Positions 18,456-42,631 of a stretch of DNA of 64,000 nt are shown here, piece after piece (the first letter of the stretch is position 1; the number at the start of each line of letters is the position of its first letter). Under the pieces are notes generated by a model that ran no database searches, was not told the DNA's origin, and saw nothing but the letters and a program-made list of their open reading frames with translations. A program made the position numbers and the translations under genes. This DNA comes from Candidatus Odyssella sp. (GTDB taxonomy: Bacteria; Pseudomonadota; Alphaproteobacteria; Paracaedibacterales; CAITNM01): the NCBI GenBank assembly GCA_020726185.1, contig DYTB01000001.1, forward strand, positions 66,526-130,525. The letters run 5' to 3'.

Positions 18456-18532
18456 GTTCCCGTAGCTCAGCAGGATAGAGCGCAAGATTCCTAATCTTGA
18501 GGCCATGAGTTCGAATCTCGTCGGGAACGCCA
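18456..18532 (+). tRNA. tRNA-Arg, anticodon CCT, with CCA encoded
   Basis: A manual cloverleaf fold works. The acceptor is GTTCCCG/CGGGAAC, the D arm is GCTC/GAGC, and the anticodon stem is CAAGA/TCTTG with loop TTCCTAA. The T arm is ATGAG-TTCGAAT-CTCGT, the discriminator is G and CCA follows, for 77 nt in total. Confidence 0.9.
18487..18532 (+). repeat. attL core (46-bp direct repeat, the tRNA-Arg 3-prime portion)
   Basis: It is identical to 32485-32530. Confidence 0.85.
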
Positions 18533-18575
18533 GTTATATAAATGGTTATGGGGATTTCTAAATTATCAAAAATTC

Positions 18576-18598
18576 TTCGGGGTTACGCCGGGGTTACA
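18576..18598 (+). promoter_or_regulatory. Tandem GGGGTTAC motif, a candidate integrase arm-type site (P-prime arm)
   Basis: TTCGGGGTTACGCCGGGGTTACA lies 43 bp after attL. A near-identical copy, TTCGGGGTTACACCGGGGTTACA, is at 32343-32365. Confidence 0.4.
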
Positions 18599-18681
18599 TT
18601 TTGAAGTAAATTAAGTCTCACTTTTTTGTAAACATTAAGTGTACATAAACTGTGTCTTTAATTTTTTTCACTTTCTCTGTG

Positions 18682-18887
18682 AAAAGGATTTGAAAAAACA
18701 CAACTTGAAGAAATATGGAAACGCTACAATACAAATATTTTTTCTGAGGCTCCGTAAAAAGGTCATTTTTGCCGTCCAGCCGTCCACCCCATATGAAAAC
18801 TGCGGCTTTCAGTCTTTTTTATCCGTCCACCTATCCGTCCACTCGGACACTTATCCGTCCAGCCGTCCAGTAAATATCAAAAATTGC
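18682..18887 (+). repeat. Island repeat family, copy A, left part (CCGTCCA heptamer array)
   Basis: It aligns nearly base-for-base with the reverse complement of 30835-31029. It contains six direct CCGTCCA units, and one inverted TGGACGG lies just beyond at 18892-18898. Confidence 0.8.
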
Positions 18888-18957
18888 GAAAGTGGACGGC
18901 AAATATCGAGGGATTAAAATATATTGAGAAAGAAATTCAGTTTGAGCATGTGAAAAT

Positions 18958-19260
18958 TTAAAGACCGTTAAATGCTCTACCACCATTAGCCCACATCCAG
19001 GCTGATAGACTAATGTGGTAATCATAGAGATGTTCTGGTGGCTCCTTGCCATTACTGGCTGCTAGAGATTTTGCAATGCGAATTTGTGATGGCTTGGCTG
19101 GTCTGCCATAACGCTCGGGGATTTTAATTGGTTTGCTTGGCCTACACTCTTTAGCAATATTTTTGATGAAATATTCGTGTTCTTGGGATACCCAAACTCT
19201 TACTTGTACGAATCCTTCTTCTTGTTTTTTCATCCGATAATTTTGCATTCTTGCTGTCAT
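18958..19260 (-). CDS. Small basic protein, possibly an RHH/DUF3018-like regulator or antitoxin
   Basis: The 100-aa ORF from the ATG at 19260 reads MTARMQNYRMKKQEEGFVQVRVWVSQEHEYF. The N-terminus recalls the DUF3018 pattern (R..G.R.V..WVP). Only this repeat copy retains the full ORF; copies B and C keep just MTARM(Q/K)R-stop. Confidence 0.35.
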   Translation of the reverse strand: MTARMQNYRMKKQEEGFVQVRVWVSQEHEYFIKNIAKECRPSKPIKIPERYGRPAKPSQIRIAKSLAASNGKEPPEHLYDYHISLSAWMWANGGRAFNGL

Positions 19261-19370
19261 AAATGAACGCCGTAGGCAATTTAGTGATGTAAAAAGTGTA
19301 GCGCACTTTATCACGACGCGTAAGTGCGCATTTAGCAAAATATGCTTAATGACACTTGATAAGACCTAAT
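19245..19370 (+). repeat. Island repeat family, copy A, right part (5-prime region of the small ORF with a conserved palindrome)
   Basis: It matches 19668-19797 and the reverse complement of 30685-30815. It contains GCGCAC-N17-GTGCGC at 19301-19329. Confidence 0.75.
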
Positions 19371-19527
19371 AGTGAGTATTAATTTTAATTTAGCAAACAC
19401 ATGTTGATGAGAGAGAAGTTTTTTATCTATTAATAAGCTGACAATAACTATTTAGGTAATTGGAATTCGGAATGATGTCAAAAGCAATTATGAGTATTCT
19501 TAAAATCTTTTGCTTAATCTTCAAAAA

Positions 19528-19800
19528 CATTTTTTCTGAGACCACTCAAAAAGGTTCTTTTTGCCGTCCAGCCGTCCACCCCATAGGAAAACTGCGGTTT
19601 TCAGCCTTTTTTATCCGTCCACCTATCCGTCCAGCCGTCCAGTAAAAACCAAAAATTGCTATCTTTGCATTCTTGCTGTCATGAATGAACGCCGTAGGCA
19701 ACATAGTGGTGTAAAAAGTGTAGCGCACTTTGTCCTTCGCATCAGTGCGCATTTAGCAAAATATGCAAAATGATACTTGATGTGATTTTGTGATTCTACA
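19528..19800 (+). repeat. Island repeat family, copy B (deletion derivative, same orientation as A)
   Basis: It aligns with the reverse complement of 30682-30975. It lacks the 357-bp segment that carries the small ORF in copy A and lacks one 21-bp unit of the heptamer array. Confidence 0.8.
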
Positions 19801-19955
19801 ATTTTAATGCAAAATTGTGCTCGGGGAATGGCATGAGAAAAAGGACATATAATTACTTAAAATTTTATATTTATTTCTTTTTTGTTGCTTAATGGTGTGT
19901 AATTGACTATTTTATTTAAATAATTCTGGTTTGAGTCTTTAGTATAAAAAAGTCA

Positions 19956-20426
19956 TTGAATATTATAGAAAACATAGAAGTCAATCGCTTTATAAACGAC
20001 ATCAAGTTGTCTGGTGTAGAGTACTTCTCCTTAGGCATTATTAAGGAAGATCAGATTTTTGCAATTTTTTCTTCTCCTACATGGCAAAAGTTCTATTTAG
20101 AAAATCAGTGTTTTGATTATGATCCTGTCATCAAAACGGCCTATGTAAATTATGATATGCCTGTTGATTGGCGTTCTGTGACAGTGCTTTTAAAAAAAGA
20201 GGCCTTCATCATGGAGGCACGAAGTGAGCTTACCGGTTGCCAAGAAGGTTTTAGCATGATCAAAAAAATCGATAGGGAAACCAGCGCAATTCTTGCATTT
20301 GGTGGGACAAAAGATTTTTCCACCGTGATGAATGCTTATGCAACCTATCAATCTGAAGTGACAAGACTCGCAGAGCTTTTGAGCTCTATCTACTTTCCCC
20401 CAAAGAAAAAGAAAAAAGAGAAGTAG
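19956..20426 (+). CDS. LuxR-type autoinducer-binding-domain-like protein without a DNA-binding HTH
   Basis: The 156-aa ORF (TTG start) reads SSPTWQKFYLENQCFDYDPVIKTA...PVDWRS...EARSELTGCQEGFSM...AILAFGG. This follows the Autoind_bind pattern (W..Y....y..DP.....p..W....a...G...G.s). It ends in a lysine tail and no HTH follows. Confidence 0.45.
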   Translation: MNIIENIEVNRFINDIKLSGVEYFSLGIIKEDQIFAIFSSPTWQKFYLENQCFDYDPVIKTAYVNYDMPVDWRSVTVLLKKEAFIMEARSELTGCQEGFSMIKKIDRETSAILAFGGTKDFSTVMNAYATYQSEVTRLAELLSSIYFPPKKKKKEK

Positions 20427-20495
20427 AGATAAAGGCAGACTAGAGATAGAGGGCTTTACGCGCCATGGAATTTTGATGCGCCTGTTAATTCTTTA

Positions 20496-21146
20496 TCATA
20501 AATGGAGTATTGATTGCATTCTTAACCAAAATATCGGGGCTGCCTTGGTGATTTTTACATTGATCTCCATATAAGCTGATCCTTCATGTTTGACGTTCGT
20601 ACCGTACAAAAACCATTCACCATTACAATAGCCAATTCTGCGTACCCGTATTTTTCCATCAGCGGTTTGCACAATGCAGGGAGAATCTAAGCACTTCTTT
20701 AAATCAGCTAGGTCTACAAGCTCACCACCAACAAAGTCTCCATGAACATAAAACGGTGCCATCGAATCATCATTGACCATTAAAGTCATCCCGTTAGGAT
20801 AAGACTCCTTAAAATAACTCAAATCCCTTAAGGCATTGATGGTTTTACTAGAGGTTGGACCTTTTGATTTGATGAACTTCGAGGGGAGAATAGTGCTAGG
20901 CGGTGATCCCTCTCCTTTTAGTAGCCATTCAGCACTGCACTCGATTGAATGGGCAAGGGCTGCAGTGATTAAGCGTTGAATATTTTGAGTTTTGATATTA
21001 TTAAAACCGCCTTCCCATTTTTCTAGGGAAACGGCTTTGATGTCATGGCGTTTTTCCATTGTTTGTCGATCAAGTCCCATTAGACCGCGCAAATAGCGAA
21101 TTCTATTGCCAATGATGCTTAAATCACTCGTATTTTTTTTACCCAA
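20496..21146 (-). CDS. CI/LexA-like repressor (XRE-type HTH plus S24 peptidase domain)
   Basis: The N-terminal HTH region reads IGNRIRYLRGLMGLDRQTMEKRHDIKAVSLEKWEGG. The C-terminal S24-like region reads VNDDSMAPFYVHGDFVGG. It is divergent from the toxin gene. Confidence 0.75.
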   Translation of the reverse strand: MGKKNTSDLSIIGNRIRYLRGLMGLDRQTMEKRHDIKAVSLEKWEGGFNNIKTQNIQRLITAALAHSIECSAEWLLKGEGSPPSTILPSKFIKSKGPTSSKTINALRDLSYFKESYPNGMTLMVNDDSMAPFYVHGDFVGGELVDLADLKKCLDSPCIVQTADGKIRVRRIGYCNGEWFLYGTNVKHEGSAYMEINVKITKAAPIFWLRMQSILHL

Positions 21147-21310
21147 CGGCTAACTCATGCTTCTTTTCTTCATAAAATACTCGATCTCGTTAAAAAGTCA
21201 AACCATATGAGCCGTTCAGCTGATCTTTGTGCTGATTCAAGTGATGCTTTTTCGTATACCTTTACCATTAAATTATCTCTTTCTTAAAATATATATCTAT
21301 AAAAAATATG

Positions 21311-21338
21311 TTTACACAGAAAAATATTAAGCTATAGT
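21311..21338 (+). promoter_or_regulatory. Candidate sigma70 promoter for the toxin operon
   Basis: TTTACA (21311-21316), a 16-nt spacer, then TATAGT (21333-21338), about 80 nt upstream of the RBS GAAGGAG and the ATG at 21416. Confidence 0.35.
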
Positions 21339-21415
21339 AACTTCACGAATTAGGGCGTATAGGTAAGGTGAAAAATCTTGCCAACAGTTTCAACAATGGA
21401 TGAAGGAGAACAAGT

Positions 21416-24400
21416 ATGTTTAAACGTTTAAGATCGCAAATTTTAAGAATTCTACCCACGATAATCATTTTAAGCTCCTTCGTTCATGGTGCTTATGATC
21501 CGAACGATCCACGTCATCAGCTCGTGAATAAAATCAAAGAGCAATATGCGACTGAAATCACTGCTCGTCAGGCTTTATTAGGAACCCATTACAATGTGGT
21601 GGCATTGGTTGATATTGCGCGTGAATGGTTGGAATTAGAAAGATTTACTCCATCTGATCCAAATTGAGGCTTAGTCATTCGTTATGCTTTATCGGGATAT
21701 GGATATAGTAAAGGCGTTGATACAACATTAAGAACAAGTGATGCTGAAATTAGCTCCCTTAAAGTTGGGCATGCATTAAGCAGCGCTTACTTACGTGCTC
21801 AAGGAGGTGCAGATCTGGTTGAAATTTCAAAAATGCATGCAGTGATGGCAGTATCAGCAATGGCATCTTTGGTTGATGTGACAGCTTGCATTACAGATGC
21901 TGTTCCTGTCCCATCTTTGATGTTGTCAAGCATTGCAGACTACGCGAGTATTCTGAATCGTGTTGCAGCCTCTATTCCTGCGGAAGTTCATGCTTTTGCT
22001 GAAATAGCTGTGGATCGTCTGCGCGGTTTAAGCCACCTTAATAAATTCAATGCATGGTTTGCCCATGAACGGTTTTGGGCAGCAGGTGGTGTTATTGATC
22101 CGCATACCTATGAACAACAAAGAACATCTCGTGCCGGATTTGCAGGAACACCGATAGCATTTTTGAATGATTTATCTACAAAGCTAGATACAGCAATGCG
22201 GTCGATGGATGCTGTGCCAACTCCCCAAAGTGTTGAGGATTTAGTTAGACAGTCACAACAGATTCTATTGACTATTGCCGCTGGAACACCAGGTGAAGAT
22301 GGTATTCCTATTCGTCTTAATCCTGCTAATGCTGCGGATTGGCAAATTATTCGCAAAGCACTATTCTTGGCCTTAAGCGTGACCAGTGATCCAATTAATG
22401 GTGGTGATACGTTTTTGAGTACATTGTTTGATTGTGCAAAGTTTTATCTAGAAAAGACTGAATCCGATGCAATTAAGGGCTATTATTGGAAAGCACAAGC
22501 ATTAGCTAAGAACTTTTCAAGTATTTGGAAGGGCCTATTATCAGGTCAGGCAGATGCTGAGCTTAATGCAGGATTAACACAGGTTATTGCGATTGCAGAT
22601 CCTTTGGTTTATAACGCTGCATGGACCTCGGAGCGTGGATCTAGTTATCCCGCTTTAAAAAGTGCTTATGAACAAGCAAAGACAATGATTTCTATTGCAG
22701 GGGTTCGCGGTGAACTAGCAACAGCTTTGTCATTACACCCAAAATTAAATCATCTGCAGACTTTTAAAGCTCTTTACCCTGATCTAATGATCTGGACTGA
22801 ATATCACATTCCTAGCCAGCAAGCTATTGATCTTGTGGATACCATCAGAACAACGATTACTCATCCGGTAGGGTTTGAACCGGAACGCGTGCACTTAAAA
22901 TATGAAGCAGGAAAATGGTCTCTTAGGGGTATTAAGTCTGCAGCATTAGGCAATGCAGAACATATTTTGTGGCGACAAGGTGCTAGTGCAGAGGAAGAAT
23001 TCATTGGTGCTTTAGAAGATGGCCGAGGAACGCATTTGTTTAGTTTCAAGGTCAATGGAGCTTCTGCAGTCATTAAGGCAATTAGCAGTGGTTATATTGT
23101 GAATCTTGGCGGAAATAATGCAAGCATTGGGGTTGCTCATGGTGCTGAACTGGGAATTGTAGAATCATCTGCTTATCCTGTGCAACTAATTGATGACCCA
23201 AGTGATGATAAAGAAAACGCTGTTTTAACTATTAAAGGAGCTGCCTATTCAGGTGAGCGTGGGGTTTTAATGGCAAGGCGCGGCAGTGTGTGGAACAGTG
23301 CTTCTTCCACTAATTTGAGCTATACAATCGCCCCTGAAATAAAACAACACAATGGAAAGAATTATAACTTCTTTGCACAAAAAGGTCATGGCATTATGGC
23401 GCATAAAGACATTGTGCTTGAAGGACAAAAGATCAATGCGTCACGAGGCATTTTAAACGCAGGAAGCAGGAAAAAGCATACATTTTGAAATGGATCGGGT
23501 TGCTGGTAAGGGCCAATTTAAAACCCATGGCAGTCTGATTCAAGCAGGAGATGAAATTATTCTAACTGGACAAGATTGGGAAGGTAATACAGAGGGTGTA
23601 TTTGCTGGATCGGCTGGTAATGTGTGTGACGTGCAGATCCCAGCAGATCTTGTGCCCAACAGCCCTCAAGCGTTACTAGATTATGGTCGTGCTTTAAGAT
23701 ACAGCTTAGGTCGTATTGAGTTTTCTAGTGAAGAAGAGAGAACAACCTTAGCACGTGGGCCCCATGCATATGGATCATATCAAAGCTTTTCATCATCGGC
23801 CCCTCGATGGAAGCCTGTTTATATATTAGTTGAGGCTGCTTATAAAAATGATGGATATGGAAGCGGTGGTTACGGAGGTGGTTTCGGAGGATTTGGAAAC
23901 TATGGAGGTGGCGGTGGTTTTGGACACACTGTTGGAAGTAGTTCATGGGCTCCACCAAGTAGCTCATTCCGTCAAGCAACAGTTGCACGACAAGAAAAGT
24001 TTATTCAACAATGCAGAGGCGGCGGTAGCGCAGCAGGTATGCCACCAGCTCCAGGAAGCTTTGGTACTATGTTTCAACAAGGTGGCTCTATAGCAGGTGG
24101 AGGCCCCAGCTCTATAGCTGGCCTAGCAGCAACCATGATTCCAGCTGGTGTTACAGAACAGAGTGTTGTTTTTGGAGGAGACAGCCGTGGTGGAGACATG
24201 ACAGCATTTGCATCTCTTTCCTTGTGCTCACAGACAGACAGCTGGACTGCAAGGGCAAGCTATACTTCAGGTCTTAGCGGTAAAAGTGTAGGATTAGAAT
24301 CAGCCTATTCAGGATCTGGTGATCGTGCAAGTGTATTGCGCGATATTCACGCCTTAACAGCTGCGAGCATTATGCAGTTGACTGATCGTCGTACAGATAG

Positions 24401-24896
24401 ATTGTCTGTTGCACCGTTGGTTTTGGGTGGATTAGCGATAGGACGCGTTGCGATTCCTCATGTAGTGAGATGGTCAAGGACTATTGTAAACGCTTATTTA
24501 TTGGCGGAGCAGGTTAGAGAACAAGCAGAAGAAGCCGCGAAAAAAGTTGCCGATGAATCATCATCTGCTGCAACCGGTGGACCAAAGGGGCAATTGCCTG
24601 ATGGCGAAGATCCTGAGAAAAAAGAAACAAAGGTTGAGCAAGGAAAAAGTCAGGCACCAAAAGTAGGGACGCCAGATTCTATCTATGAGCAGATTGGTGA
24701 TGATGGTAGTGTAAACTCAAGAACATATTATGATGAAAACGGTAGGCAATTTTCTAGGCAGGATTATGGCCATACTCATGGTGGGCAAGAAGGCCCGCAC
24801 CAACATGAAAGAACGTTTGATGCCCAAGGTTTGCCACTAACTGGGAAAGTTGTGAAACCTCTGCCTTCTGGGTACCCTAACACATCAAGTTTGTGA
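21416..24896 (+). pseudogene. Large secreted polymorphic-toxin-like protein (~1160 codons) broken by an in-frame TGA and a +1 frameshift
   Basis: ORF 21416-21667 (signal peptide) and ORF 21833-23488 share a frame, and the frame is open from 21668, so TGA at 21665-21667 is the only interruption. ORF 23490-24896 is open from 23457 in the +1 frame, and the junction is at the A5 run 23471-23475. A Gly-rich tract (GYGSGGYGGGFGGFGNYGGGGGFG) is followed by a hydrophobic helix and a Lys/Glu linker. The last ~70 aa carry RTYYDENGRQFSRQDYGHTHGGQEGPHQHE. Confidence 0.6.
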
Positions 24897-24903
24897 GGTA
24901 AGT

Positions 24904-25440
24904 ATGAGTAGTTTTTTAGTTGGAATTATTGAACAGAATGTGAGCAGAACAACTGATGATGGAAAGCACTCTAGAGCATTTGATAGTTGCTTGTATAAGA
25001 TGCAAAAAATAGGCATTGATCAAGGATTATCAATTTTAATAGGGTGGAATATTCAGCCATATGCTTTTAATGAAATCAAAGATTTTATTCCTGCTCACCT
25101 ACAGGATAAGTCTAATACGGCTAGATTTATGATTGCTAGGTCTCCTGAGGATAACTTTAGCGACGAACTGTTTAATGATTGGGAATATGAATCCTGTCGA
25201 GAGGGGTATGTGCCGGGGCAAGCAAAAGTGTTTAAAGAATTAGAAAGCTTTATCGCTCAAGTTTTTGCTTTAAATGAAGTAAAAAGCTTATGGCTTAGAT
25301 ATCAGTGTATGTCTGCGTGTGAGGTTAACAAGCTTGCAACCATTGCTGACTTAGAAGGGCAAATTTATAAGCAATGTTCCAACGGTGAGCTGTTCGAAGT
25401 TTCAGACTTTGAAATTAGCTTGAAGAAAGAAGAAAAATAA
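24904..25440 (+). CDS. Putative cognate immunity protein (hypothetical, acidic, cytoplasmic)
   Basis: The 178-aa ORF starts 8 nt after the toxin stop. It has no signal peptide, and the immunity call rests on position only. Confidence 0.4.
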   Translation: MSSFLVGIIEQNVSRTTDDGKHSRAFDSCLYKMQKIGIDQGLSILIGWNIQPYAFNEIKDFIPAHLQDKSNTARFMIARSPEDNFSDELFNDWEYESCREGYVPGQAKVFKELESFIAQVFALNEVKSLWLRYQCMSACEVNKLATIADLEGQIYKQCSNGELFEVSDFEISLKKEEK

Positions 25441-25454
25441 TGGGGAATTGATAA

Positions 25455-25535
25455 CAAATTTTGTTACGATTTCTTCTGCTTGGGTGGCTGTTCTTATGCC
25501 ACCCCTTTACGATGCAGCAACAGGAAAGGTGATTT
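25455..25535 (+). repeat. Inter-cassette spacer repeat, copy 1 (stem-loop GGGTGGC/GCCACCC at 25482-25504 plus the RBS for the next gene)
   Basis: It shares CAAATTT...GCTTGGGTGGCT...CACCC...ATGCAGCA..GGAA.GGTGATT with 25849-25916. Confidence 0.6.
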
Positions 25536-25838
25536 ATGAAAACAATATATCCTGATGTTTTTGAAAAGGTATTATTTATTTGTGACCAATATATAGCAAA
25601 TGAGTGTACGCCTAAAAAGGTTCAAGAGATTACTGGATGGGCTGAGAGTTTTATTCAGAATTTTGAAGAAAAAGATTTAAGGAAATTCTTTACGGTCATT
25701 GAAAGTGATATTGATTTTGTCAGGGTTATGGCAAATGAGGCAGACTTTGAATATAGGGGGATTCCTGAAAGAGAAAACAGAGAAGAAATGTTGAAGATAA
25801 TTCATAGGATCAAAACTGAATTGATTAATCATCAGTAA
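25536..25838 (+). CDS. Hypothetical small helical protein, possibly an orphan immunity cassette
   Basis: The 100-aa ORF is preceded by RBS AGGAAAGG within the spacer repeat and followed by a second copy of the spacer repeat. Confidence 0.35.
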   Translation: MKTIYPDVFEKVLFICDQYIANECTPKKVQEITGWAESFIQNFEEKDLRKFFTVIESDIDFVRVMANEADFEYRGIPERENREEMLKIIHRIKTELINHQ

Positions 25839-25848
25839 GATTACATAC

Positions 25849-25916
25849 CAAATTTCTAACAGTGCTTGGGTGGCTTTAAGTCACCCGTTTTATGATGCAG
25901 CAGGAACGGTGATTCA
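25849..25916 (+). repeat. Inter-cassette spacer repeat, copy 2 (stem-loop 25868-25886; the downstream start codon is lost)
   Basis: CCAAATTTCTAACAGTGCTTGGGTGGCTTTAAGTCACCCGTTTTATGATGCAGCAGGAACGGTGATTCAC. Where copy 1 has TTATG, this copy has TCACTGA. Confidence 0.6.
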
Positions 25917-26137
25917 CTGATAAATTTTTTAATTTTGATTTAGATTGTCGGGTGCATTAAAAATATCCAATTACAAATTAGTGATAGAAATAGAGGAACT
26001 TTTAATTGTCGCTGATCATCATGAAATCAGATAAGCTTGAAAATAATAAAAATTAGATAATTTTAAAATACCTGGTAAAGATTAATGCAAGAAATAAAAA
26101 AAGAATTAAACCTTCCAACAGCAAATCGGACTGAATC

Positions 26138-28744
26138 ATGAAATTTTGGGTCTTTCTGTTAGGATCATTTTTATGTGCATCTTATGCAGCTGAAAAAGCC
26201 CCTGAATTTCTGATAGAAGCTGCTCCTTCTTTTGTTGAGTCAATAAACGAAGAAGAATTTTTTAGCATTTCGGACCAAGAAAGTGCAAGTGGCGTTCATT
26301 AACAACTTCTTGATTCCCAAATAAAAAAAGAAACCGATAGGATTGATTACTTTACGCACATTTCTAAAAAGGTCATCAATCAAAACGGCATTGATAACGC
26401 AGCTATTATCGAAATTGAATTTGATCCTATAGGTGATTCACTTGTACTTCACCACGTAAACGTAAAACGCGGGAAGACAATTATTAACCATCTGAAAACT
26501 GCAAAAATTAAAGTGCTTCAGCGCGAAAAATCTTTAGAGAGAAAGCATTATACAGGCGCCAAATCTATTAACATTATCTTAGATGACATCAGAGTCGGAG
26601 ATATCATCGACTATTGCTTCACTATAAAAAGCAAAAACATTAATGATAATAAGAACTTTCATACCAGAATTTACCTTTCCAACGCTGTTCCAATTCATTT
26701 TTTAAGTAAACGTATTTTGTGGCCTCAAAGCCTGCCTCCGCTTGTTGTTAAAAATCATACGACTGATCTTCAACCCATCACAAGGAAACGCGAAAAATAT
26801 ACTGAATATTTATGGCAAAAAAAAGAAGTCCCTGTTGATCAATACGAACCTTATACTCCTATTTGGCATGATGTTGTGCCTTGGATTGAAATAAGCGCTA
26901 ACCTTAATTGGCGGGATATTAATCTTGCTCTGTCTGAGCACTATAAAGTCCAGGCTTTACCACCTTCCATAAAAAAACATGTTGATCGTATCATCAGTGC
27001 AGAAAAAGACTTAGGCAAACGTTTCATTACTGCAATACGCTTCATCCAAGATGAAATTAGATACATGGGAATGTCAGACCGTATTGATGGATATAAGCCC
27101 CTAAATGCAGAGCTAACTTATGAAAGACGTTTTGGTGATTGTAAAGACAAAACGTACCTTGCTTTGACTATGCTTAAAGCTTTGGGAATAGAAGCTTATC
27201 CAGCTGTTGTGCACACAATGTTTGGAAAACTTCTTGATTCACGCTTAGCAAATCCTGCAATTTTTAATCATATTATTGTTGTTGCCATTATTAATGGTAA
27301 AAAGTATTGGATTGATCCAACGTGTTCTTTGCAAGGAGGAACATTAAAAAATTACGTTCAGCCCGACTATGGCTACGCACTTATTCTGGATGGAAAATCG
27401 CAAAGCCTCATCAAAATGCCTTCTCTTGAGCTAACAGAGCCTTCCATTGAATTTTATGAGAAATTTGACCTTTCAAAAGGACCTGGAAACCCAAATTATC
27501 TATCGATAAAGACCGTGTATAAAAATATGCATGCAGATAGCCAACGTGGATATTTTCATATAACACCAAAAAAAGAGATGAACGAATCTTATGTTAATGG
27601 AATGAAAATAAATTACCCCCTTATTCGACAAAAAAGTGAACTTATTGTTTTAGATGACCGAGAAAAAAATGTCATAATTGTCGCAGAAGACTATGAAATA
27701 CCTGACCTGTGGAAAAGAAGGGAAGCTAAAAAACTCTGGATTATGTATACGTATGTTGATGAGTTTATAACTTATCTAAATAATAAAAATATTTTTGCTG
27801 ATAGAAAGACCCCTGTATCCCATATTTCCCCCAGATATATTACCAAGAAAATAGAGATGATTCTTCCTGACAAATGGGATTTCAAAACTGAATCAATAGC
27901 TGTAACTGATCCCACTTTTGAGTTTAAAAAAGAAACGCAGTTGCAAGATCTAAACTATTCGATTTCTTATGTTTATAGAAGCCTTAGTGATCATGTAGAA
28001 CACAAAATGATTGCTTCTTACATTAAAAACGCTGATCAAGCCTATGCTCTTTTAAAAAGTAATCTATGTCAATTTGATCCATCTCCCCCTGATAAGATGT
28101 CTGAAAAAAAAGAACCACCTAAAAAGAAAGATTCCCTAAATTGGCCAATCTTTTTACTGCTTGTTATTGCTCTTATATTTTTCATTTTTTTAGCCAAGAA
28201 AATTTATGTTTCTAAACCTAAAGTGCTTTTGGAAAAAGATGAAGGTTCAAAATTTTATGGCATTGAAGGTTGGCCGTTGTTGTCAGGTTTTTATATTCTT
28301 TTCAGAATCATTATTTATTTTGGGGCCTTTTATTCTATAGCAAGCGAGGTATTATCCCATGACACGTGGATTAGGGTCTCAACCTCAACCTCCGATACAT
28401 TCAAACCATTTTTTCTTCCTTTGGCATTTAAAGTAGCGTTTACGTCTCTTTTACTTACTGCATTGTGGGGGCTGGCAGCAATGCTTTTTTTGAAGAAGAA
28501 ACATCTATTTCCACATGTGTTTGTTTTTGCGTTGTTTGGGGATTTTTTATTTATAATATCCGATCAGATATTGTCTTATTTTTTCCTTTCTTCTGTTTCA
28601 ACAAAGACAGATATTATGGGCACCATAGTCTTTGGATTGGTTGTATTGATCTGGGGTGTATATATGGCAAAATCAAAAAGAATCAAAGTGACCTTTGGAC
28701 AAAATTACTCATTTAATTTCAAAAAAAATAACAATACACTCTAA
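26138..28744 (+). pseudogene. DUF3857-like N-terminal domain plus transglutaminase-like cysteine protease core plus C-terminal polytopic membrane domain, with one in-frame TAA
   Basis: The ATG at 26138 gives a signal peptide (MKFWVFLLGSFLCASYAAE) in the same frame as ORF 26513-28744. The only interruption is TAA at 26300-26302 (SASGVH*QLLDSQ). The transglutaminase core reads RRFGDCKDKTYLALTMLKALGIEAYPAVV. The C-terminal ~200 aa contain at least 5 TM helices. Confidence 0.65.
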
Positions 28745-28767
28745 TTAAAAAAGAAAGCGAAGTTCAA

Positions 28768-29286
28768 ATGCAAAAAAATCCGCTACAAAACAGCTCTGAT
28801 GAACTGGCAACAATAAAATTTTTCAGTTTTGAATTAGAAGCTATTAGCTTAAAACAAATATTAGATTTTTATGCTTGGTTTTTGATTGCTGAAATAATTA
28901 TTATGCTTGCAATAGCATTGCTTTTTGACAGGTTTAATGTTGGTGGAATTTATGGGGGTTTATATCTGTGTGGAGTCATAGGAACTTTGGGTTTTTGTAT
29001 TTATAGATACAGGTATTCACCGTACATGCATGGCCTTATAATTATTGCTTATGGCTATTCGTTTGGAGAAAAAATTAACTATTTAAAAAAATTCAAAACG
29101 GATTCATACTTAATTGAAAAGTTTAAAAATATTATATTTAACGAAGGAACCTTTGCTTCAATACATGATTTTTTTGCAGAAAGCTTATGCGAAAATATTT
29201 CTTATTATTTTAACGGCTTTTTTATGAGTTTGATTTTTTTCTATTTTGCATATTCCTATAAGAAATTGAATAAGCGCACTAACTAG
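28768..29286 (+). CDS. Hypothetical membrane protein
   Basis: The 172-aa ORF has about 4 hydrophobic helices and is followed by spacer repeat copy 3. Confidence 0.4.
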   Translation: MQKNPLQNSSDELATIKFFSFELEAISLKQILDFYAWFLIAEIIIMLAIALLFDRFNVGGIYGGLYLCGVIGTLGFCIYRYRYSPYMHGLIIIAYGYSFGEKINYLKKFKTDSYLIEKFKNIIFNEGTFASIHDFFAESLCENISYYFNGFFMSLIFFYFAYSYKKLNKRTN

Positions 29287-29292
29287 AATGAC

Positions 29293-29340
29293 TAAATTTC
29301 TAACAGTACTCGGGTGGCTTTTAAGTCACTTGTTTCTGTT
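29293..29340 (+). repeat. Inter-cassette spacer repeat, copy 3 (degenerate)
   Basis: TAAATTTCTAACAGTACTCGGGTGGCTTTTAAGTCACTTGTTT matches the left two-thirds of copy 2. Confidence 0.55.
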
Positions 29341-29419
29341 TTGTCAATACATGCGATGGCATTGTTTATAAAAACGCGGTACAATCAATTATAAAAACGC
29401 GGGTTAAATATTTATAAAA

Positions 29420-30661
29420 ATGGCGAGATCCTTAAATTCTATATATGCACGCATTCAAAAAGATTGCGTTGATTTAGCCTTGCAAACAAGTCGTGTTATT
29501 CATTTGTCTGGCCCTCGACAATGTGGGAAAACAACGTTAGCAAAAATGATGGTGTCTGAAGATTGTGATTATCGTACGCTAGATGATGAAACGTATTTAC
29601 AATCAGCGCTTATCGACCCAAATGGATTTGTTAGGCATGACAAAAAACATTTAATCATCGACGAAATTCAACGAGCTCCTAATCTTTTAATGGCAATTAA
29701 AAAGGTTGTAGATACTGACAACAGGCCAGGACAGTATATTTTAACTGGGTCATCTAACATTCAAGCATTACCAGGCGTTAACGAATCATTGGCAGGACGC
29801 ATCCGCAAAATTCGCTTGAGGACGCTAACAGAAGGAGAGATATTAGGGAATGCTGCTTCATTTTTAGAGAGAGCTTTTTCTCAGGTTTTTAAGGAAAAAA
29901 GTGATTTAAATCGTGATTCAATATTAGAAATTGGCTTTCGAGGGGGATTTCCTGAAGCCGTACGATTACCACCTAAAATTCGCTCTATATGGCATAAGGA
30001 ATATATGAATGCTCTTTTAGAGAGGGATTTAAAGGATATTGTTAAAATCCAACGACATGAAACAATGCATGATCTCATAAGGGTTATGGCTGGTTGGTCA
30101 TCAAAATTTATGGATATATCAGCAATTGGATCAAACTTAGGGGTAACCCGACCTACTCTTGAAACATACATCAATGCTTTAGAAGCAATGTATATTGTTG
30201 AGCGTGTTCGTCCATGGTCGCGAACTGACTATGATCGCGTAAGTAAACACAGTAAGGTTTTTATGACAGACACGGGGCTTATGGCTTCATTGTTGGGGTG
30301 GGACATAGATCAAGTGCGATTTGATTCGGATCGCTGCGGTAAGTTAATGGAAACCCTAGTATTTCATAGTTTATCTACTTTAATTGATGCAGATTTTGGA
30401 AAATATACACTCTATCATTATCGAGATCGAGAAAAACGAGAGATTGATTTTCTCATTGAGCGTGAGGACGGATCGATGCTCGCAATAGAGGTTAAAGCGG
30501 GGTCATCGGTTGGAAAGAGCGATTTTAAACACTTGGACTGGTTTAAACAAAATATGGCTAAGGAAAAGCCATTTATTGGGATAGTTGTGTATACCGGAGA
30601 AGCAGCAGTTCCCTTTGGAGATGGTTTTTGGGCAGTGCCAATGAGTGATATGTGGAAGTAA
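29420..30661 (+). CDS. AAA-type ATPase with a DUF4143-like C-terminal domain
   Basis: Walker A is LSGPRQCGKTTLAK and Walker B is LIIDEIQRAPNL. The C-terminal region (EIDFLIE...AIEVKAG) is a restriction-endonuclease-like pattern typical of AAA_14/DUF4143 proteins. Confidence 0.7.
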   Translation: MARSLNSIYARIQKDCVDLALQTSRVIHLSGPRQCGKTTLAKMMVSEDCDYRTLDDETYLQSALIDPNGFVRHDKKHLIIDEIQRAPNLLMAIKKVVDTDNRPGQYILTGSSNIQALPGVNESLAGRIRKIRLRTLTEGEILGNAASFLERAFSQVFKEKSDLNRDSILEIGFRGGFPEAVRLPPKIRSIWHKEYMNALLERDLKDIVKIQRHETMHDLIRVMAGWSSKFMDISAIGSNLGVTRPTLETYINALEAMYIVERVRPWSRTDYDRVSKHSKVFMTDTGLMASLLGWDIDQVRFDSDRCGKLMETLVFHSLSTLIDADFGKYTLYHYRDREKREIDFLIEREDGSMLAIEVKAGSSVGKSDFKHLDWFKQNMAKEKPFIGIVVYTGEAAVPFGDGFWAVPMSDMWK

Positions 30662-30681
30662 TTAAATTTTGTGTGTGAGAA

Positions 30682-31029
30682 TGTCAGAATCATAAAATCA
30701 GATCAAGTATCATTTTGCATATTTTGCTAAATGCGCACTGATGCGGAGGACAAAGTGCGCTACACTTTTTACACCGCTATGTTGCCTACGGCGTTCATTC
30801 ATGACAGCAAGAATGAAAAGATAGCAATTTGTTGATATTTACTGGACGGCTGGACGGATAAGTGTCCAAGTGGACGGATAGGTGGACGGATAAAAAAGGC
30901 TGAAAGTCGCAGTTTTCCTATATGGTGGACGGCTGGACGGCAAAAATGACCTTTTTAAGGGGCCTCAGAAAAAATATTTGTATTGTACCTTTTCCATATT
31001 TCTTCAAGTTGCTGTTTTTCAAATCCCTT
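30682..31029 (-). repeat. Island repeat family, copy C (contiguous form, inverted relative to A and B)
   Basis: Its reverse complement aligns with 18682-18887 plus 19245-19370 (copy A) and with 19528-19800 (copy B). It carries a stub ORF (MTARMKR-stop) and GCGCAC-N16-GTGCGC at 30733-30760. Confidence 0.8.
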
Positions 31030-31119
31030 TGGTTGGATGTCACCGATTTCTATATTTTTCGTGAGGATTTAGTAAGGGGTAAGAAGTCTACTTAGCTGAC
31101 GTGGTGGCCCTACTTTTGT

Positions 31120-32316
31120 TTAAATGAGACCACGTTCTGCAGATTTCTTTAATCCTGCCGCTACTAACATGGCGCCAGTTGCCCTATCAACAGATTCTCG
31201 CACCGGGTCTAAATCTAATCGTGCATAAATTGCGGTTGTACTTGGTGATTTATGATTCAACGACTTGCCAACTATCACCAATGATGCGCCTGTTTTTGCT
31301 TGCCAGCTACCAAGAGTACGCCGTAGATCATGAATTCGTAGGTTGGCAATCCCAGCCCGCTCTAATACACGTTTCCAGGATTTTTTAGGTTCAACAAGGT
31401 GGCCAGTAACACCAGTCCCTGGAAATACCCATGTCGTGTTAGTGCCTTGTCGTGCTCGTAAAATCTCAACAACTTCATGAGTTAGGGTAACTGTTTGAGA
31501 GTCCCCGTTTTTAGTAATAGGTATACGCCATTCTCCACGCTCTAGATGTATCTGTGACCATTGCATTTCTTGGACATTAGAACGCCTGGCACCAGTCAGT
31601 AAGGAAATAAGAAAATAGTCTCTCAACGTATCGTTTTGTTCTTCTGCTAGTGATTTGAAAAATGCAGGTAATTCATCGGACTGTAAAAAACGATCACGAG
31701 TATTTTCATAGAATTTTTTAATGCCTTGAGCCGGGTTAGTGCCTTTAAACAATTTTTTCTCAGTAGCATACCCAAACAAGCTAGATGCTAGGGCGATAAT
31801 CCGATTAGCCGTAGTTGGGTATTCTTTGCCTATCTCAGTATGTAGCTTACCAAAATCATTGTCTTTAAATTGGGATAACTGCCGCTTACTCCATTTGGCT
31901 AGGTACAAGTTAAAATTATATCGGTAGGTGCTTTTTGTGCTCGCTGATAAATATGCACCCTTTCGGTTACGACGATGTTTAAGGAACTCTTCAAACAATT
32001 CTTCCAATGTTGTTTCTGTTTTTAGTGCGCGAGCGTCAGAGTTTGGATTGATACCATCAACAATAAGTGCATTTATACGTGCTGCCTCATTACGTGCCTG
32101 CTCAATAGACATATCGGGGTAACGTCCCATGGTTACACGTTCAGGGTTTCCATTTTTGATGCGTCGATAAACGCAAAATGTTTTAACACCAGTACTCGTG
32201 ATGCGTATCTGTAGGCCATTGGTCTTTTTATCGTGATAAGCTTGGCGTTGACCACTGGCGGGTAAAGGCAGAGCATCTAAAGTTGCTTTGGTAAAGTTGA
32301 TTTTATTCTCTGACAT
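31120..32316 (-). CDS. int: Tyrosine-type integrase, P4-like, with a DUF4102-type arm-binding N-terminus
   Basis: The N-terminus reads TKATLDALPLPASGQRQAYHDKKTNGLQIRITSTGVKTFCVYRR...GRYPDMSIEQAR. The catalytic region contains ARRSNV, HDLRRTLGS and AIYARL. Confidence 0.9.
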   Translation of the reverse strand: MSENKINFTKATLDALPLPASGQRQAYHDKKTNGLQIRITSTGVKTFCVYRRIKNGNPERVTMGRYPDMSIEQARNEAARINALIVDGINPNSDARALKTETTLEELFEEFLKHRRNRKGAYLSASTKSTYRYNFNLYLAKWSKRQLSQFKDNDFGKLHTEIGKEYPTTANRIIALASSLFGYATEKKLFKGTNPAQGIKKFYENTRDRFLQSDELPAFFKSLAEEQNDTLRDYFLISLLTGARRSNVQEMQWSQIHLERGEWRIPITKNGDSQTVTLTHEVVEILRARQGTNTTWVFPGTGVTGHLVEPKKSWKRVLERAGIANLRIHDLRRTLGSWQAKTGASLVIVGKSLNHKSPSTTAIYARLDLDPVRESVDRATGAMLVAAGLKKSAERGLI

Positions 32317-39513: not shown

Positions 39514-41442
39514 ATGGTCGAAAGTATTCAGCATAAGCTCGACCGGGTGCGCCCACCGCGCGTCCAAATTACCTATGATGTAGAAATAGGTGATGCTATC
39601 GAAATGAAAGAGCTGCCCTTTGTGGTTGGTATTCTTGCAGATTTATCTGGTCATCTGTCTGACCCTCTCCCCCCATTAAAAGAGAGAAAATTTGTAGAAA
39701 TTGATCGTGACAATTTTCCAGAAGTTCTGGAATCTATCAAGCCACGCTTGGCAATTACTGTTCCCTACAAATTAGGTGCGGACAAAACTGAAACTTCTCT
39801 TGAGCTATTTTTCAGTTCCATAGAAGATTTTGAGCCATTAAACATTGTCAAAAGAGTTGATGATTTAAGTACGCTGTATGATTCACGCTGTCACTTAAAA
39901 GATTTAATGAATAAGCTTGATGGTAATGATGCACTTGCTGCAATGCTTTCTGATTTAATGGGAGATGCTGCAAAACAAAAAGCACTAGCAGATCAAATTG
40001 CTGCTGGTGCAGGTGCTGATCTCGATAAATTGTTGAGTGAAGGCAAAATGGTTCGTGATGAATCACAAAAACCAATAGTCTTAAATATTTTAAAAGAATT
40101 TTTAATGCAGGTTGCAACGCCTGACGAAAATGCACCAACACTACTTGGACATTATCTAGCGTATCATATGGACCGCATTGATAACCTTTTGACCAGTCAA
40201 CTTAATGAAATCATGCATCATCCAGATTTTCTAAAGTTAGAAGGATCTTGGAGAGGATTGTCTTACTTAGTGTACAAAGCTGAAACAGGTGAGCACTTAA
40301 AATTAAGGTTGATGAACCTTTCTCGTCAAGAACTGCAAAATGACCTAGATAAAGCAGTTGAATTTGACCAAAGCCAATTATTCAAAAAAGTTTATGAAGA
40401 AGAATACGGAACCTTTGGTGGACATCCATATTCTTGTTTGGTTGGTGATTTCGAATTTGGTAGATCTCCTATGGATATGGACTTACTTGAAAAAATTTCA
40501 GGTGTTGCCGCAGCTGCACATGCACCATTTATAAGCGCTGCACATCCTATGCTTTTTGACTTAGATAGCTTCGAGCACTTAGGCGTTCCAAGAGATTTAA
40601 GTAAGGTAATGGATAGCTTAGAGTTAGTAAAATGGCACAGTTTTAGGAGTGCTCCAGATTCTCGTTATGTGAGCCTAGTGTTGCCACGCGTTCTAATGCG
40701 CTTACCTTATGGTCCAGATACATCTCCTGTTGAAGGCTTGAATTTCAAAGAAGATGTAGGCATGGCTGACAGTAATCTTTTCTGTTGGGGTAATGCGGCA
40801 TTCGTTCTAGCTGAGCGCATGTGTAATGCGTTTAGCTTATATCGCTGGACAGCCGCTATCCGTGGCGTTGAAGGCGGTGGTATTGTTGAGGGATTGCCTC
40901 CTTACACATTCAAAACACCAGATGGAGACGTTGCTCTTAAATGTCCAACAGAAGTTAGCATTACTGATCGTCGTGAAAAAGAATTAAGCGACAACGGATT
41001 TATTTCTTTATGTCATTGCAAAGGAACTGACTACGCAGCATTCTTTGGTGGGCAAACATCACAAAAACCAAAGAAATATAATCTTGATGACGCTACAGCA
41101 AATGCAAACCTTTCAGCAAGGCTTCCATACATATTAGCCGCTTCACGATTTGCTCATTACATCAAAGTTATCATGCGTGATAAAGTCGGTAGCTTCATGA
41201 CAAAAGATAATGTTTCTCATTATCTAAATACATGGATAGCACAGTATGTGTTGTTAAACGACGGAGCACCTCAAGAAGTTAAGGCAAAGTATCCACTTCG
41301 TGAAGCAAGAATTGATGTATTTGAAGTTCCTGGACAACCTGGTTCATACACATCAGTTGCATATATCAGGCCACACTTTCAACTTGAAGATCTGGCAGTT
41401 TCTATTCGCCTGGTCGCAAAATTACCAGCACCACCCGCGTAA
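39514..41442 (+). CDS. tssBC: Type VI secretion sheath protein: TssB (VipA) and TssC (VipB) fused in one 642-aa polypeptide
   Basis: Residues 1 to ~165 match the TssB pattern (RPPRVQITYDVEIGDAIEMKELPFVVGILADLSGH...FVEIDRDNF...IEDFEPLNIV). The rest matches TssC (IMHHPDFLKLEGSWRGLSYLV, FDQSQLFKKVYEEEYGTFGGHPY, AAAAHAPFI, RYVSLVLPRVLMRLPYG, IRGVEGGG, ITDRREKELSDNGF, LSARLPYILAASRFAHYIK). There is no stop or frame change between the two parts. Confidence 0.85.
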   Translation: MVESIQHKLDRVRPPRVQITYDVEIGDAIEMKELPFVVGILADLSGHLSDPLPPLKERKFVEIDRDNFPEVLESIKPRLAITVPYKLGADKTETSLELFFSSIEDFEPLNIVKRVDDLSTLYDSRCHLKDLMNKLDGNDALAAMLSDLMGDAAKQKALADQIAAGAGADLDKLLSEGKMVRDESQKPIVLNILKEFLMQVATPDENAPTLLGHYLAYHMDRIDNLLTSQLNEIMHHPDFLKLEGSWRGLSYLVYKAETGEHLKLRLMNLSRQELQNDLDKAVEFDQSQLFKKVYEEEYGTFGGHPYSCLVGDFEFGRSPMDMDLLEKISGVAAAAHAPFISAAHPMLFDLDSFEHLGVPRDLSKVMDSLELVKWHSFRSAPDSRYVSLVLPRVLMRLPYGPDTSPVEGLNFKEDVGMADSNLFCWGNAAFVLAERMCNAFSLYRWTAAIRGVEGGGIVEGLPPYTFKTPDGDVALKCPTEVSITDRREKELSDNGFISLCHCKGTDYAAFFGGQTSQKPKKYNLDDATANANLSARLPYILAASRFAHYIKVIMRDKVGSFMTKDNVSHYLNTWIAQYVLLNDGAPQEVKAKYPLREARIDVFEVPGQPGSYTSVAYIRPHFQLEDLAVSIRLVAKLPAPPA

Positions 41443-42100: not shown

Positions 42101-42631
42101 ATGGGCATCTCAACGAAGTCGCTTAAAAAAAATACAAGTACAAGCTCATTTCTAAATAAACCAGAACCAAAACCAAAAAAAGGTAGTAAAGCGCCTCTCT
42201 TTGAGAGATTGATTGATGACATTCCAGAAACACAGCAAGAACATCCTAAAAGGATAATTCTCAATCGTGCCCAAGTGTTAGAGTCTATAGTCAATGACGT
42301 TGCTCGTTTATTAAATACACACCTAAGCGCCACAGCAAAAATTTATAGTCGTTATCGTGACCAAGAATACGGCCTAGGTTTACCTTGGATGTATGGTGTT
42401 CCTGATTTTACATCAATGGACCCTGCTGACAAAACTCAGTGGGTGCGTATAGGTGATCTTTTTAAGGATGCCATCAGTTACTTTGAGCCTAGACTAAAAA
42501 AAGTAAGTGTTTCTCTTGACCATTTCGATGGACAGAGTCAGCGTTTATATATAAGCATTCGCGGACAAGTTGTAATGAAGGAATTTCAGCAACCCGTTGC
42601 TTTTGGTATAGAAATTAACAACCTCAGCTAG
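42101..42631 (+). CDS. tssE: Type VI secretion baseplate protein TssE (gp25-like)
   Basis: PLFERLIDD, SIVNDVARLLNT, GLPWMYGVPDF, ISYFEPRLKKVSV and LYISIRG follow the TssE/GPW_gp25 pattern. Confidence 0.8.
   Translation: MGISTKSLKKNTSTSSFLNKPEPKPKKGSKAPLFERLIDDIPETQQEHPKRIILNRAQVLESIVNDVARLLNTHLSATAKIYSRYRDQEYGLGLPWMYGVPDFTSMDPADKTQWVRIGDLFKDAISYFEPRLKKVSVSLDHFDGQSQRLYISIRGQVVMKEFQQPVAFGIEINNLS

Follow-up and report, generated by a model that had tools for sequence, protein, structure and literature searches.

A probably recently inactivated gene of an apparently undescribed polymorphic toxin family, with its immunity gene retained, on a tRNA-Arg island of an uncultured alphaproteobacterium

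Polymorphic toxin systems of the CdiA/CdiB and Rhs types combine a constant body with a C-terminal tip that follows a pre-toxin motif (VENN or DPxGL), and they are accompanied by cognate immunity genes, by orphan arrays of tips and immunity genes provided with a recombination handle, and by a putative receptor-binding region that varies among strains. MafB/MafI of Neisseria and other Sec-dependent polymorphic toxins (PMC3482391) possess a signal peptide only and a lineage-restricted N-terminus, together with swappable tips, an adjacent immunity gene, orphan cassettes, location on a genomic island and an unexplained step after Sec. Nuclease colicins and S-type pyocins place receptor and translocation parts before a C-terminal nuclease, have a Gly-rich segment and a linked immunity gene, carry no signal peptide and are released by lysis proteins. 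The 64,000-nucleotide stretch analysed here (the window; contig DYTB01000001.1 of Candidatus Odyssella sp., an uncultured alphaproteobacterium) contains a locus with likenesses to all three. We read it, with a probability of about 0.8 for the reading as a whole, as a recently inactivated secreted polymorphic toxin gene with an intact cognate immunity gene and a further, orphan immunity gene, lying on a tRNA-Arg island (Table 1); a nonsense codon and a 7-bp duplication would have abolished the full-length secreted toxin while the immunity gene was retained.

The likenesses are accompanied by differences on every side. Relative to MafB, the N-terminus of the window's toxin family has no DUF1020 (MafB-N) match in Pfam at E≤1 and is about three times longer, with its own helical, beta-rich, Gly-rich and hairpin layout and its own junction, and no MafA-like neighbour was seen. 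A tip of the window's type (Ntox24, see below) is also found on Rhs, HINT and VENN proteins, but Pfam scans of the family revealed no two-partner secretion domain, filamentous haemagglutinin repeats, YD repeats or Rhs core, the junction reads TGGP..PDPxDE and not VENN, and there is no CdiB-like gene in any locus examined. Some members end in a PF09000 tip, and in the window's species a CI/LexA-type repressor stands beside the gene, both as in colicins; unlike colicins and pyocins, however, the family has a signal peptide, its body is similar to theirs in neither sequence nor fold, and no lipoprotein lysis gene is present. Among features of type VI secretion system (T6SS) effectors, no marker domain was found, a Sec signal is present, and the other loci examined have no T6SS genes nearby. 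As the defining domains are absent, the family lies outside the CdiA, Rhs, MafB, colicin/pyocin and T6SS-effector families. The toxins of Ca. Bodocaedibacter vickermanii (Midha et al. 2021, PMC8163844) are comparable in belonging to a Holosporales-type symbiont, in having bodies without N-terminal homology and in the orphan modules that share the pre-toxin region; a genome scan for the two motifs of the window's family returned no Bodocaedibacter locus. The APD1/APD2 prodomains of Amoebophilus (Zhang 2012, PMC3482391), which are lipoprotein-anchored and Bacteroidota-specific, were considered and set aside, as nothing ties them to the family.

Table 1. Features of the toxin locus and its island (positions in the window; P0001 is a homologue of the toxin, L003 a syntenic locus; AF2, AlphaFold2 model; pLDDT, its per-residue confidence; aa, amino acids; nt, nucleotides; ORF, open reading frame)
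Feature	Position	Strand	Remarks
tRNA-Arg(CCT)	18456-18532		island end
Genomic island holding the locus, ~12 kb between repeats	18456-32316	.	tRNA-Arg(CCT), repeats, integrase
Repeat copies (~100-370 nt, several)	18552-19814		just past tRNA-Arg
CI/LexA-like repressor gene, divergent	20496-21146	-	helix-turn-helix (HTH) plus weak S24-like C-terminal domain with DDSMAP motif
Promoter-like site TTTACA-16-TATAGT upstream of toxin gene	21311-21338	+	10/12 consensus matches; weak
Shine-Dalgarno-like GGAG	~21404-21407	+	read from sequence
Reconstructed toxin pseudogene	21416-24896	+	~1157 codons, two lesions, split into three ORFs
First ORF, ends in TGA	21416-21667	+	83 aa
Second ORF stretch, frame of 21416	after 21667 to stop at 23486-23488	+	same reading frame
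Third ORF, +1 frame	23490-24896	+	468 aa
Sec-type signal peptide MFKRLRSQILRILPTIIILSSFVHGA	21416-21493	+	basic n-region, small-residue c-region
Helical N-terminal domain, ~450 aa	21494-22885	+	AF2 of P0001 residues 23-460 all-helical, pLDDT mostly 80-93
Nonsense lesion TGG (Trp) to TGA, codon 84	21665-21667	+	L003 comparison
Beta-rich domain, ~300 aa	22886-23852	+	AF2 of P0001 residues 465-770, pLDDT 85-95
Frameshift lesion, perfect 7-bp tandem duplication GCAGGAA x2	23459-23472	+	+7, equivalent to +1; overlaps A-run
Gly-rich linker, probably disordered: GYGSGGYGGGFGGFGNYGGGGGFG ... GGGSAAG...GGGPSS	23853-24113	+	P0001 residues 770-869
Module of four amphipathic G/S/T-rich beta strands, then helix (..HxxxSAAILQLT..)	24174-24389	+	AF2, family alignment
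Junction ('pre-toxin') motif ATGGPKGQLPDGEDPEKK	24570-24623	+	constant/variable boundary
Ntox24-like toxin domain, predicted metal-independent RNase	24642-24893	+	~85 aa; Pfam PF15529
Immunity ORF, undisrupted	24904-25440	+	178 aa; ATG 7 nt past toxin stop
Orphan immunity gene, 100 aa	25536-25838	+	no toxin partner in window
DUF3857 / transglutaminase-core / DUF2569 membrane-protein gene	26138-28744	+	Pfam domains; broken
172-aa membrane protein, at least 2-3 transmembrane segments	28768-29286	+	hydropathy; 3' end of toxin loci
Inverted repeat copies, 89-93% complementary	30669-31030		beside integrase
Tyrosine integrase	31120-32316	-	Pfam Phage_integrase E=3.3e-25

The first-pass annotation of the window had joined three consecutive ORFs into one gene, and the features from which it argued (the ORF boundaries, the in-frame TGA, the Gly-rich tract and the tip motif Y-D-x-x-G...H...P-H-x-H) are all present as claimed. 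Translation in the frame of 21416 meets one in-frame TGA, at 21665-21667. Residues 1-665 of P0001 match 21416-23464 unbroken and residues 664-786 match 23466-23852 in tblastn, and the alignments of homologues cross both breaks collinearly. Homologues of the reconstructed protein number 24, with lengths of 950-1160 aa and E-values between 0 and 1e-114. At L003, a locus of the metagenome-assembled genome (MAG) 'Alphaproteobacteria bacterium ELA364' that is syntenic with window positions 20495-29408 and has flanks of ~98% nucleotide identity, an intact orthologue of 1160 aa (L003:972-4454) is followed by a 178-aa ORF, whose product shares 56% identity with that of the window ORF. Because the relatives are single ORFs and the syntenic orthologue is intact, 21416-24896 is best taken as one gene present in three ORF fragments, as proposed at first.

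The family to which this gene belongs comprises ~25-30 sequence clusters, without a Pfam, PDB or phage-protein match for the body. Its members share the signal peptide, a conserved N-terminal region of ~960 aa and a junction motif TGGPxGxLPDPxDE..KK (consensus S-x-T-G-G-P-x-G-x-L-P-D-P-[DE]-D..K-K), straight after which at least eight unrelated C-terminal types follow among at least 24 homologues; in three members the tip is the colicin E3 'Cytotoxic' domain PF09000. The gene downstream co-varies with the tip type: behind other tips stand Imm32 (after P0016 and in the P0003 array) and DUF6980 (after P0007). Orphan tip and immunity cassettes recur in the family. At L001, behind a full-length toxin and its immunity gene, come three orphan C-terminal fragments, every one paired with a small ORF; the fragments start at MMGSMNLGSTTMGFNY in the conserved beta-hairpin region. 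Orphan tips also occur in L008 and L014; the window itself holds an orphan immunity gene only, and no further toxin copies or stubs were found in its 64 kb. Because of this constant N-terminus, the variable tips with small ORFs of their own and the orphan cassettes, the family behaves as a polymorphic toxin system, in agreement with the first interpretation of the locus. It appears to be a previously undescribed toxin family, whose body, junction and immunity family are all new; the cassette principle is already known. The beta-hairpin and junction region that the spare cassettes retain could be a recombination handle. Since P0004 and P0003, with their immunity genes, sit in prophage-like DNA (L009:8001-13730 and L018:10001-22997), the family is at least in part phage-borne; in L009 the immunity gene is directly followed by a terminase large subunit gene (E=1.9e-70), with YqaJ, RecT, SSB and VRR_NUC genes near. 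Toxin relatives are also present in Ca. Finniella inopinata (order Holosporales, family Paracaedibacteraceae).

The 178-aa ORF had been placed in the classic immunity position, and comparison among loci bears this out. Homologues with 42-66% identity stand directly after every toxin or orphan fragment of this tip type that was examined: in L003, in L008 after P0001, in L009-11 after P0004, in L012-13 after a 1131-aa toxin whose Ntox24-like tip was verified, and in L014-15, where three tandem immunity paralogues follow an orphan tip. Co-occurrence with the Ntox24-like tip is strict across six locus types, and in the loci examined toxins with other tips are followed by unrelated ORFs, never by the 178-aa family. 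The ORF downstream of a YD-shell toxin of the same tip type, a possible remote relative, compares with the family at blastp E=0.003 and an hhalign probability of 5%. The family is small (12 clusters). The protein has no hydrophobic segment and matches no Pfam family, being neither Imm50 nor Imm53 (weak DUF7810, E=0.0054); its AF2 model is a confident alpha+beta fold (pLDDT 80.7), with no significant match in PDB by sequence or by model. The ORF thus behaves as the cognate immunity gene, and because of its strict tip linkage and the lack of a Pfam family or PDB neighbour its family would be a new kind of immunity protein directed against an Ntox24-like toxin.

The orphan immunity gene downstream shares 93% identity with gene three of the P0003 immunity array (L018:13913-14212) and 56% with L008:6555-6857, a gene that stands behind an orphan toxin tip. 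Comparison with L003 places it on an insertion of ~720 bp that is missing there. A hairpin-containing repeat of ~45-70 nt (..CTAACAGTGCTTGGGTGGC...GCCACCC.TTTTATGATGCAGCAGGAA..) at 25474-25500, 25866-25890 and 29291-29321 follows three consecutive cassettes, namely the 178-aa and 100-aa immunity genes and the gene of the 172-aa membrane protein, and two of its copies flank the insertion just described; the repeat may serve as a terminator or as a site for recombination. The immunity genes of the window are presumably retained because they still protect against toxin-making neighbours.

Ntox24 has been described as an all-beta domain with conserved Y, H and H, a predicted metal-independent endoRNase with Imm50 and Imm53 as partners (Zhang et al. 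2012, PMC3482391); one passage of that paper names one key His and another 'Y, H, H'. The tip of the window toxin shares with it a strictly C-terminal position, the conserved Tyr and two His, the occurrence on RHS, HINT, FilH and VENN scaffolds and a predicted beta-rich structure, and differs in its immunity partner, which is the new family, not Imm50 or Imm53. It matches PF15529 with E=1.5e-4 over profile positions 13-81 of 91, at 22.5 bits, 1.5 bits under the Pfam gathering score of 24. With the last 109 residues as query, phmmer was run exhaustively over 1.84 billion representative proteins and returned 172 matches, all at protein C-termini. Sixty-four of these, each 250 aa or longer, were scanned for domains; 18 carry Ntox24 (best E=4.7e-9), ten RHS repeats, ten PT-HINT and five PT-VENN; other scanned relatives have SpvB/TcdB domains. 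The window tip keeps every residue whose conservation across 151 aligned sequences reaches 88% or more, including the Tyr (93%), the His (97%) and both His of PHxH (95% and 88%; conserved His codons at 24777-24779, 24798-24800 and 24804-24806), and the signature P-[ND]-S-I-Y-E..G..S-R-T-x-Y-D-x-x-G..R-x-D..H..P-H-x-H is complete; nothing significant was found for the tip among PDB sequences. By transitivity and by its motif the tip thus appears to be an Ntox24 relative despite the sub-threshold score, and it is predicted to act as an RNase; the relation of the terminal module to Rhs-type toxins that had been suggested is upheld by these scaffolds.

The constant region was modelled on P0001 from an alignment of 24 sequences (mean pLDDT 67.9). 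The Sec-type signal peptide has a hydrophobic core at residues 9-23 (Kyte-Doolittle 2.17), and its pattern is conserved in the homologues. The most conserved motifs of the family, NAWFAHERFW (22049-22078) and IRKALFLALS (22349-22378), lie in the helical domain. The window and L003 share 93-98% identity over residues 1-320 but only 20-60% from residue 320 to ~1090, with flanks of ~98%; this points to mosaic strain-level diversification of the middle region, as in the receptor-binding regions of CdiA and colicins, and the beta-rich domain, hypervariable among strains of the same species, is a candidate receptor-binding part. The Gly-rich linker (P0001 residues 770-869) has pLDDT below 35 and no secondary structure, and its Gly-rich consensus is kept in the family. 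Conservation climbs again over the strand-helix module, whose modelled strands of ~11 residues each (872-883, 886-896, 901-911 and 914-924) and helix (932-948) have pLDDT 55-73; it is a candidate element for membrane insertion or translocation. After residue 948 a charged linker and then the tip follow, with low pLDDT.

None of this body could be connected with a known family. Searches of each segment against Pfam and NCBIfam gave no match for the first ~1070 residues, the profile of the 24 homologues found none among PDB sequences, and Foldseek with the P0001 model returned none in PDB or BFVD at E≤0.001; PHROGs and PADLOC had no match for the toxin or immunity proteins, and a second search with the family profile added no new distant members. 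The first-pass annotation had recognised the Sec-type signal peptide and the absence of a known delivery domain, and both points hold. Its segment 'resembling filamentous-repeat proteins' has no Pfam or NCBIfam match at E≤1, and that resemblance is not supported; the Gly-rich tract is present, and its proposed link to the colicin translocation domain comes down to glycine richness.

From this architecture a working sequence of events can be proposed. The divergent CI/LexA-like repressor would govern expression, and Sec would carry the toxin to the periplasm, from where it would be released or displayed on the surface, with the 172-aa membrane protein and phage-induced lysis as candidates for this step. 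The variable beta-rich domain may then recognise a receptor on related bacteria, the hairpin module may aid passage of the tip through a membrane, and the Ntox24-like tip would work as a metal-independent RNase; in the producer, the cytoplasmic 178-aa protein would bind and neutralise it. A more far-reaching version, which we regard as doubtful, makes the ~960-aa constant region a self-contained, hitherto unrecognised delivery platform for bacterial toxins, whose module oligomerises after Sec export into a beta-barrel or pore, with the 172-aa protein as release factor and prophages as means of spread. If this were so, the four-strand module would be a counterpart of the stem of beta-pore-forming toxins or of an autotransporter anchor contributing four strands per subunit, the pore would move the C-terminal tip across an outer membrane, and prophages would spread the system among protist-associated Holosporales.

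The target might instead be the eukaryotic host, with the toxin working as an endosymbiont's 'addiction' module. Toxin relatives do occur in Holosporales symbionts of protists, and host addiction has been proposed for the polymorphic toxins of a Paracaedibacter-like symbiont (Midha et al., PMC8163844). The cognate, orphan and tandem immunity genes and the strain-level swapping of tips and receptor region nevertheless form a signature of conflict between bacteria, an argument made for Odyssella by Zhang et al. (PMC3482391), and some members carry tips of the colicin E3 type; we therefore consider a host target unlikely.

The inactivation of the gene, as opposed to its nature, depends on the two lesions. 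At codon 84, L003 reads TCT GAT CCA AAT TGG GGC and the window ...AAT TGA GGC, with identical neighbouring codons; the Trp is near-invariant across the toxin family and is kept in the environmental variants P0187, P0189, P0190, P0191 and P0196, at least 90% identical to the window. The second lesion, placed at first at an A5 run, is a real +1 shift, but its cause is the 7-bp duplication, which leads to a premature TGA at 23486-23488. Removal of one GCAGGAA copy yields ...NAGKSIHFEMDRV..., matching the at least 90%-identical variant P0190 (...ILNAGKSIHS), and gives the 6-residue spacing of the homologues, e.g., LAGQSVCLDMDRV in P0001. A slip from A4 to A5 was rejected: deletion of one A leaves an extra SR found in no homologue. 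The ATG of the 468-aa ORF starts one nucleotide after the premature TGA (23486-23492), and termination-reinitiation could yield a cytoplasmic fragment with the toxin tip and without the signal peptide; such a fragment, if made, would be a second reason to keep the immunity gene.

The lesions could be errors of sequencing or assembly in a gene that is actually intact. The source is a MAG, and several of the environmental variants with at least 90% identity have Trp at codon 84 and run uninterrupted through the second site. Against this, a second NCBI assembly (GCA_973787335.1; L016), whose contigs are structured differently and which agrees with the window at 99.985% over 13,407 nt (2 mismatches), shows both lesions, the broken ORFs of 83 and 551 aa are recorded exactly in Logan assemblies, and a clean 7-bp tandem duplication is atypical of homopolymer or base-calling error. 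An artefact is thus quite improbable; both lesions are very probably real and recent, and the suggestion that the toxin was inactivated and its immunity gene kept stands.

Delivery by a T6SS also has to be weighed. A 642-aa fused sheath protein (VipA/TssB plus VipB/TssC, 39514-41442) is encoded ~14 kb downstream of the toxin locus and is followed by a 189-aa ORF without a family match and a gp25/TssE gene (42101-42631); the TssB-TssC fusion is common in metagenomes, in a sequence cluster of 107 members. The presence of fused TssB-TssC and TssE in the window would suit a T6SS effector, and T6SS transport was suggested by Midha et al. for their polymorphic toxins (PMC8163844). It is very unlikely here, given the cleavable-looking Sec signal peptide, the absence of any PAAR, VgrG, Hcp, MIX or Rhs feature, and the family members that lie near secE-nusG, near xseA or in prophages with no T6SS genes nearby.

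Full-length expression by recoding, in which TGA would encode Trp or selenocysteine and the A-rich site would cause a programmed +1 shift, might be suspected, since the TGA stands in place of a Trp codon, the second site is rich in A and an ATG lies 1 nt past the stop. In the window, however, TGA terminates the PheT, HisRS and repressor genes, and in 22 genes all 109 Trp codons are TGG, with no in-frame TGA. The genome uses the standard genetic code and the TGA is a true stop; genetic code 4 (TGA as Trp) is ruled out on the same grounds. The sister strain moreover has one uninterrupted frame with TGG, the shift is due to a duplication missing in relatives, and an Rfam scan returned no recoding element, so that recoding is highly improbable. 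That the region holds three independent genes and an unrelated downstream ORF, as the separate annotation of the pieces by gene callers would have it, can be dismissed, as it is one ORF in every relative outside the window's lineage and homology runs collinearly through both breaks.

Several points weigh against the reading of the locus as an inactivated, Sec-dependent antibacterial toxin. Toxicity, neutralisation and secretion of family members are predictions from sequence, the signal peptide was called by eye and hydropathy, and the strand-helix module is modelled with moderate confidence only; the roles proposed for the domains are drawn by analogy with colicins and CdiA. The Ntox24 match falls below the Pfam threshold, RNase activity is only inferred for this subfamily, and the immunity protein belongs to neither of the partner families given for Ntox24 in the literature. 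Across the loci examined, no gene for an exporter, a receptor or lysis accompanies the toxin consistently, and bacterial rather than host targets are deduced from the presence of immunity genes only. The lesions are corroborated by assemblies only, and the two assemblies sharing them possibly come from the same population or study.

The neighbourhood of the toxin gene suggests regulated expression. The divergent gene encodes a repressor with HTH_19 (E=8.5e-4) and Peptidase_S24 (E=0.03) matches in Pfam, a DicA-type match in NCBIfam (E=2.3e-7) and the transcriptional repressor family phrog_4 in PHROGs (E=2.5e-11), and copies 99.5% identical to it precede two different toxin alleles in ELA364 (L002 and L003). 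This suggests repressor-controlled toxin expression, possibly by an SOS-type mechanism. Promoter-consensus sites are no commoner in the region than in shuffled sequence, and the site at 21311-21338 is weak evidence. The two ELA364 loci have repressor and promoter regions 97.5-99.5% identical and different toxin alleles, of which P0006 misses the first ~180 residues and has a different signal peptide; they may stem from a mixture of strains or be genuine paralogues.

Downstream of the immunity genes, the 869-codon DUF3857 gene is interrupted by a single in-frame stop at codon 55 (TAT to TAA, 26300-26302). As L003 keeps TAT there and lacks the first ~37 codons, the gene was disabled independently in the two strains. 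In L014/L015 an intact 880-aa DUF3857 protein with Tyr at that codon is encoded in the same place after the immunity genes; a link to the toxin is unproven. Homologues of the 172-aa membrane protein were found, by local HMM search of the loci examined, only 3' of toxin and immunity arrays, in four locus types with different flanks: window/L003/L016, L014/15 (L014:7949-8479), L017 (13856-14347) and L007 (8895-9212). They share the motifs KFFxFxL..LKxxL..AW, FFRYSPYMHG and FFYFAYSYKKL, and neither Pfam nor PHROGs gave a match for the protein, which may serve in release or in some other accessory role.

The locus is bracketed by inverted copies of a repeat of ~200-370 nt. The island end differs in L003, where this repeat is present and then a tRNA, and Rfam detected two tRNAs only across the window. 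A 156-aa ORF of the island (19956-20426), a short way upstream of the repressor and toxin genes, has a LuxR-type autoinducer-binding domain only (Pfam E=2e-6), with no DNA-binding HTH. Also in the island, an AAA_14/DUF4143 ATPase gene (29420-30661), missing from L003, was assigned with PADLOC to PDC-S01, a candidate defence system (E=3.9e-137).

Taken by itself, the outcome in the window would be an ordinary one, in which the weapon is gone and the shield is retained. The family behind it may matter more widely, as each new delivery body would be another way of moving proteins between bacterial cells, and the 178-aa proteins would add immunity partners of a new kind to a predicted RNase that is itself uncharacterised. 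The bacteria that carry it, relatives of protist endosymbionts, are little studied and for the most part uncultured; among them the family may offer a testable handle on competition among symbionts, or on manipulation of the host, by secreted nucleases.

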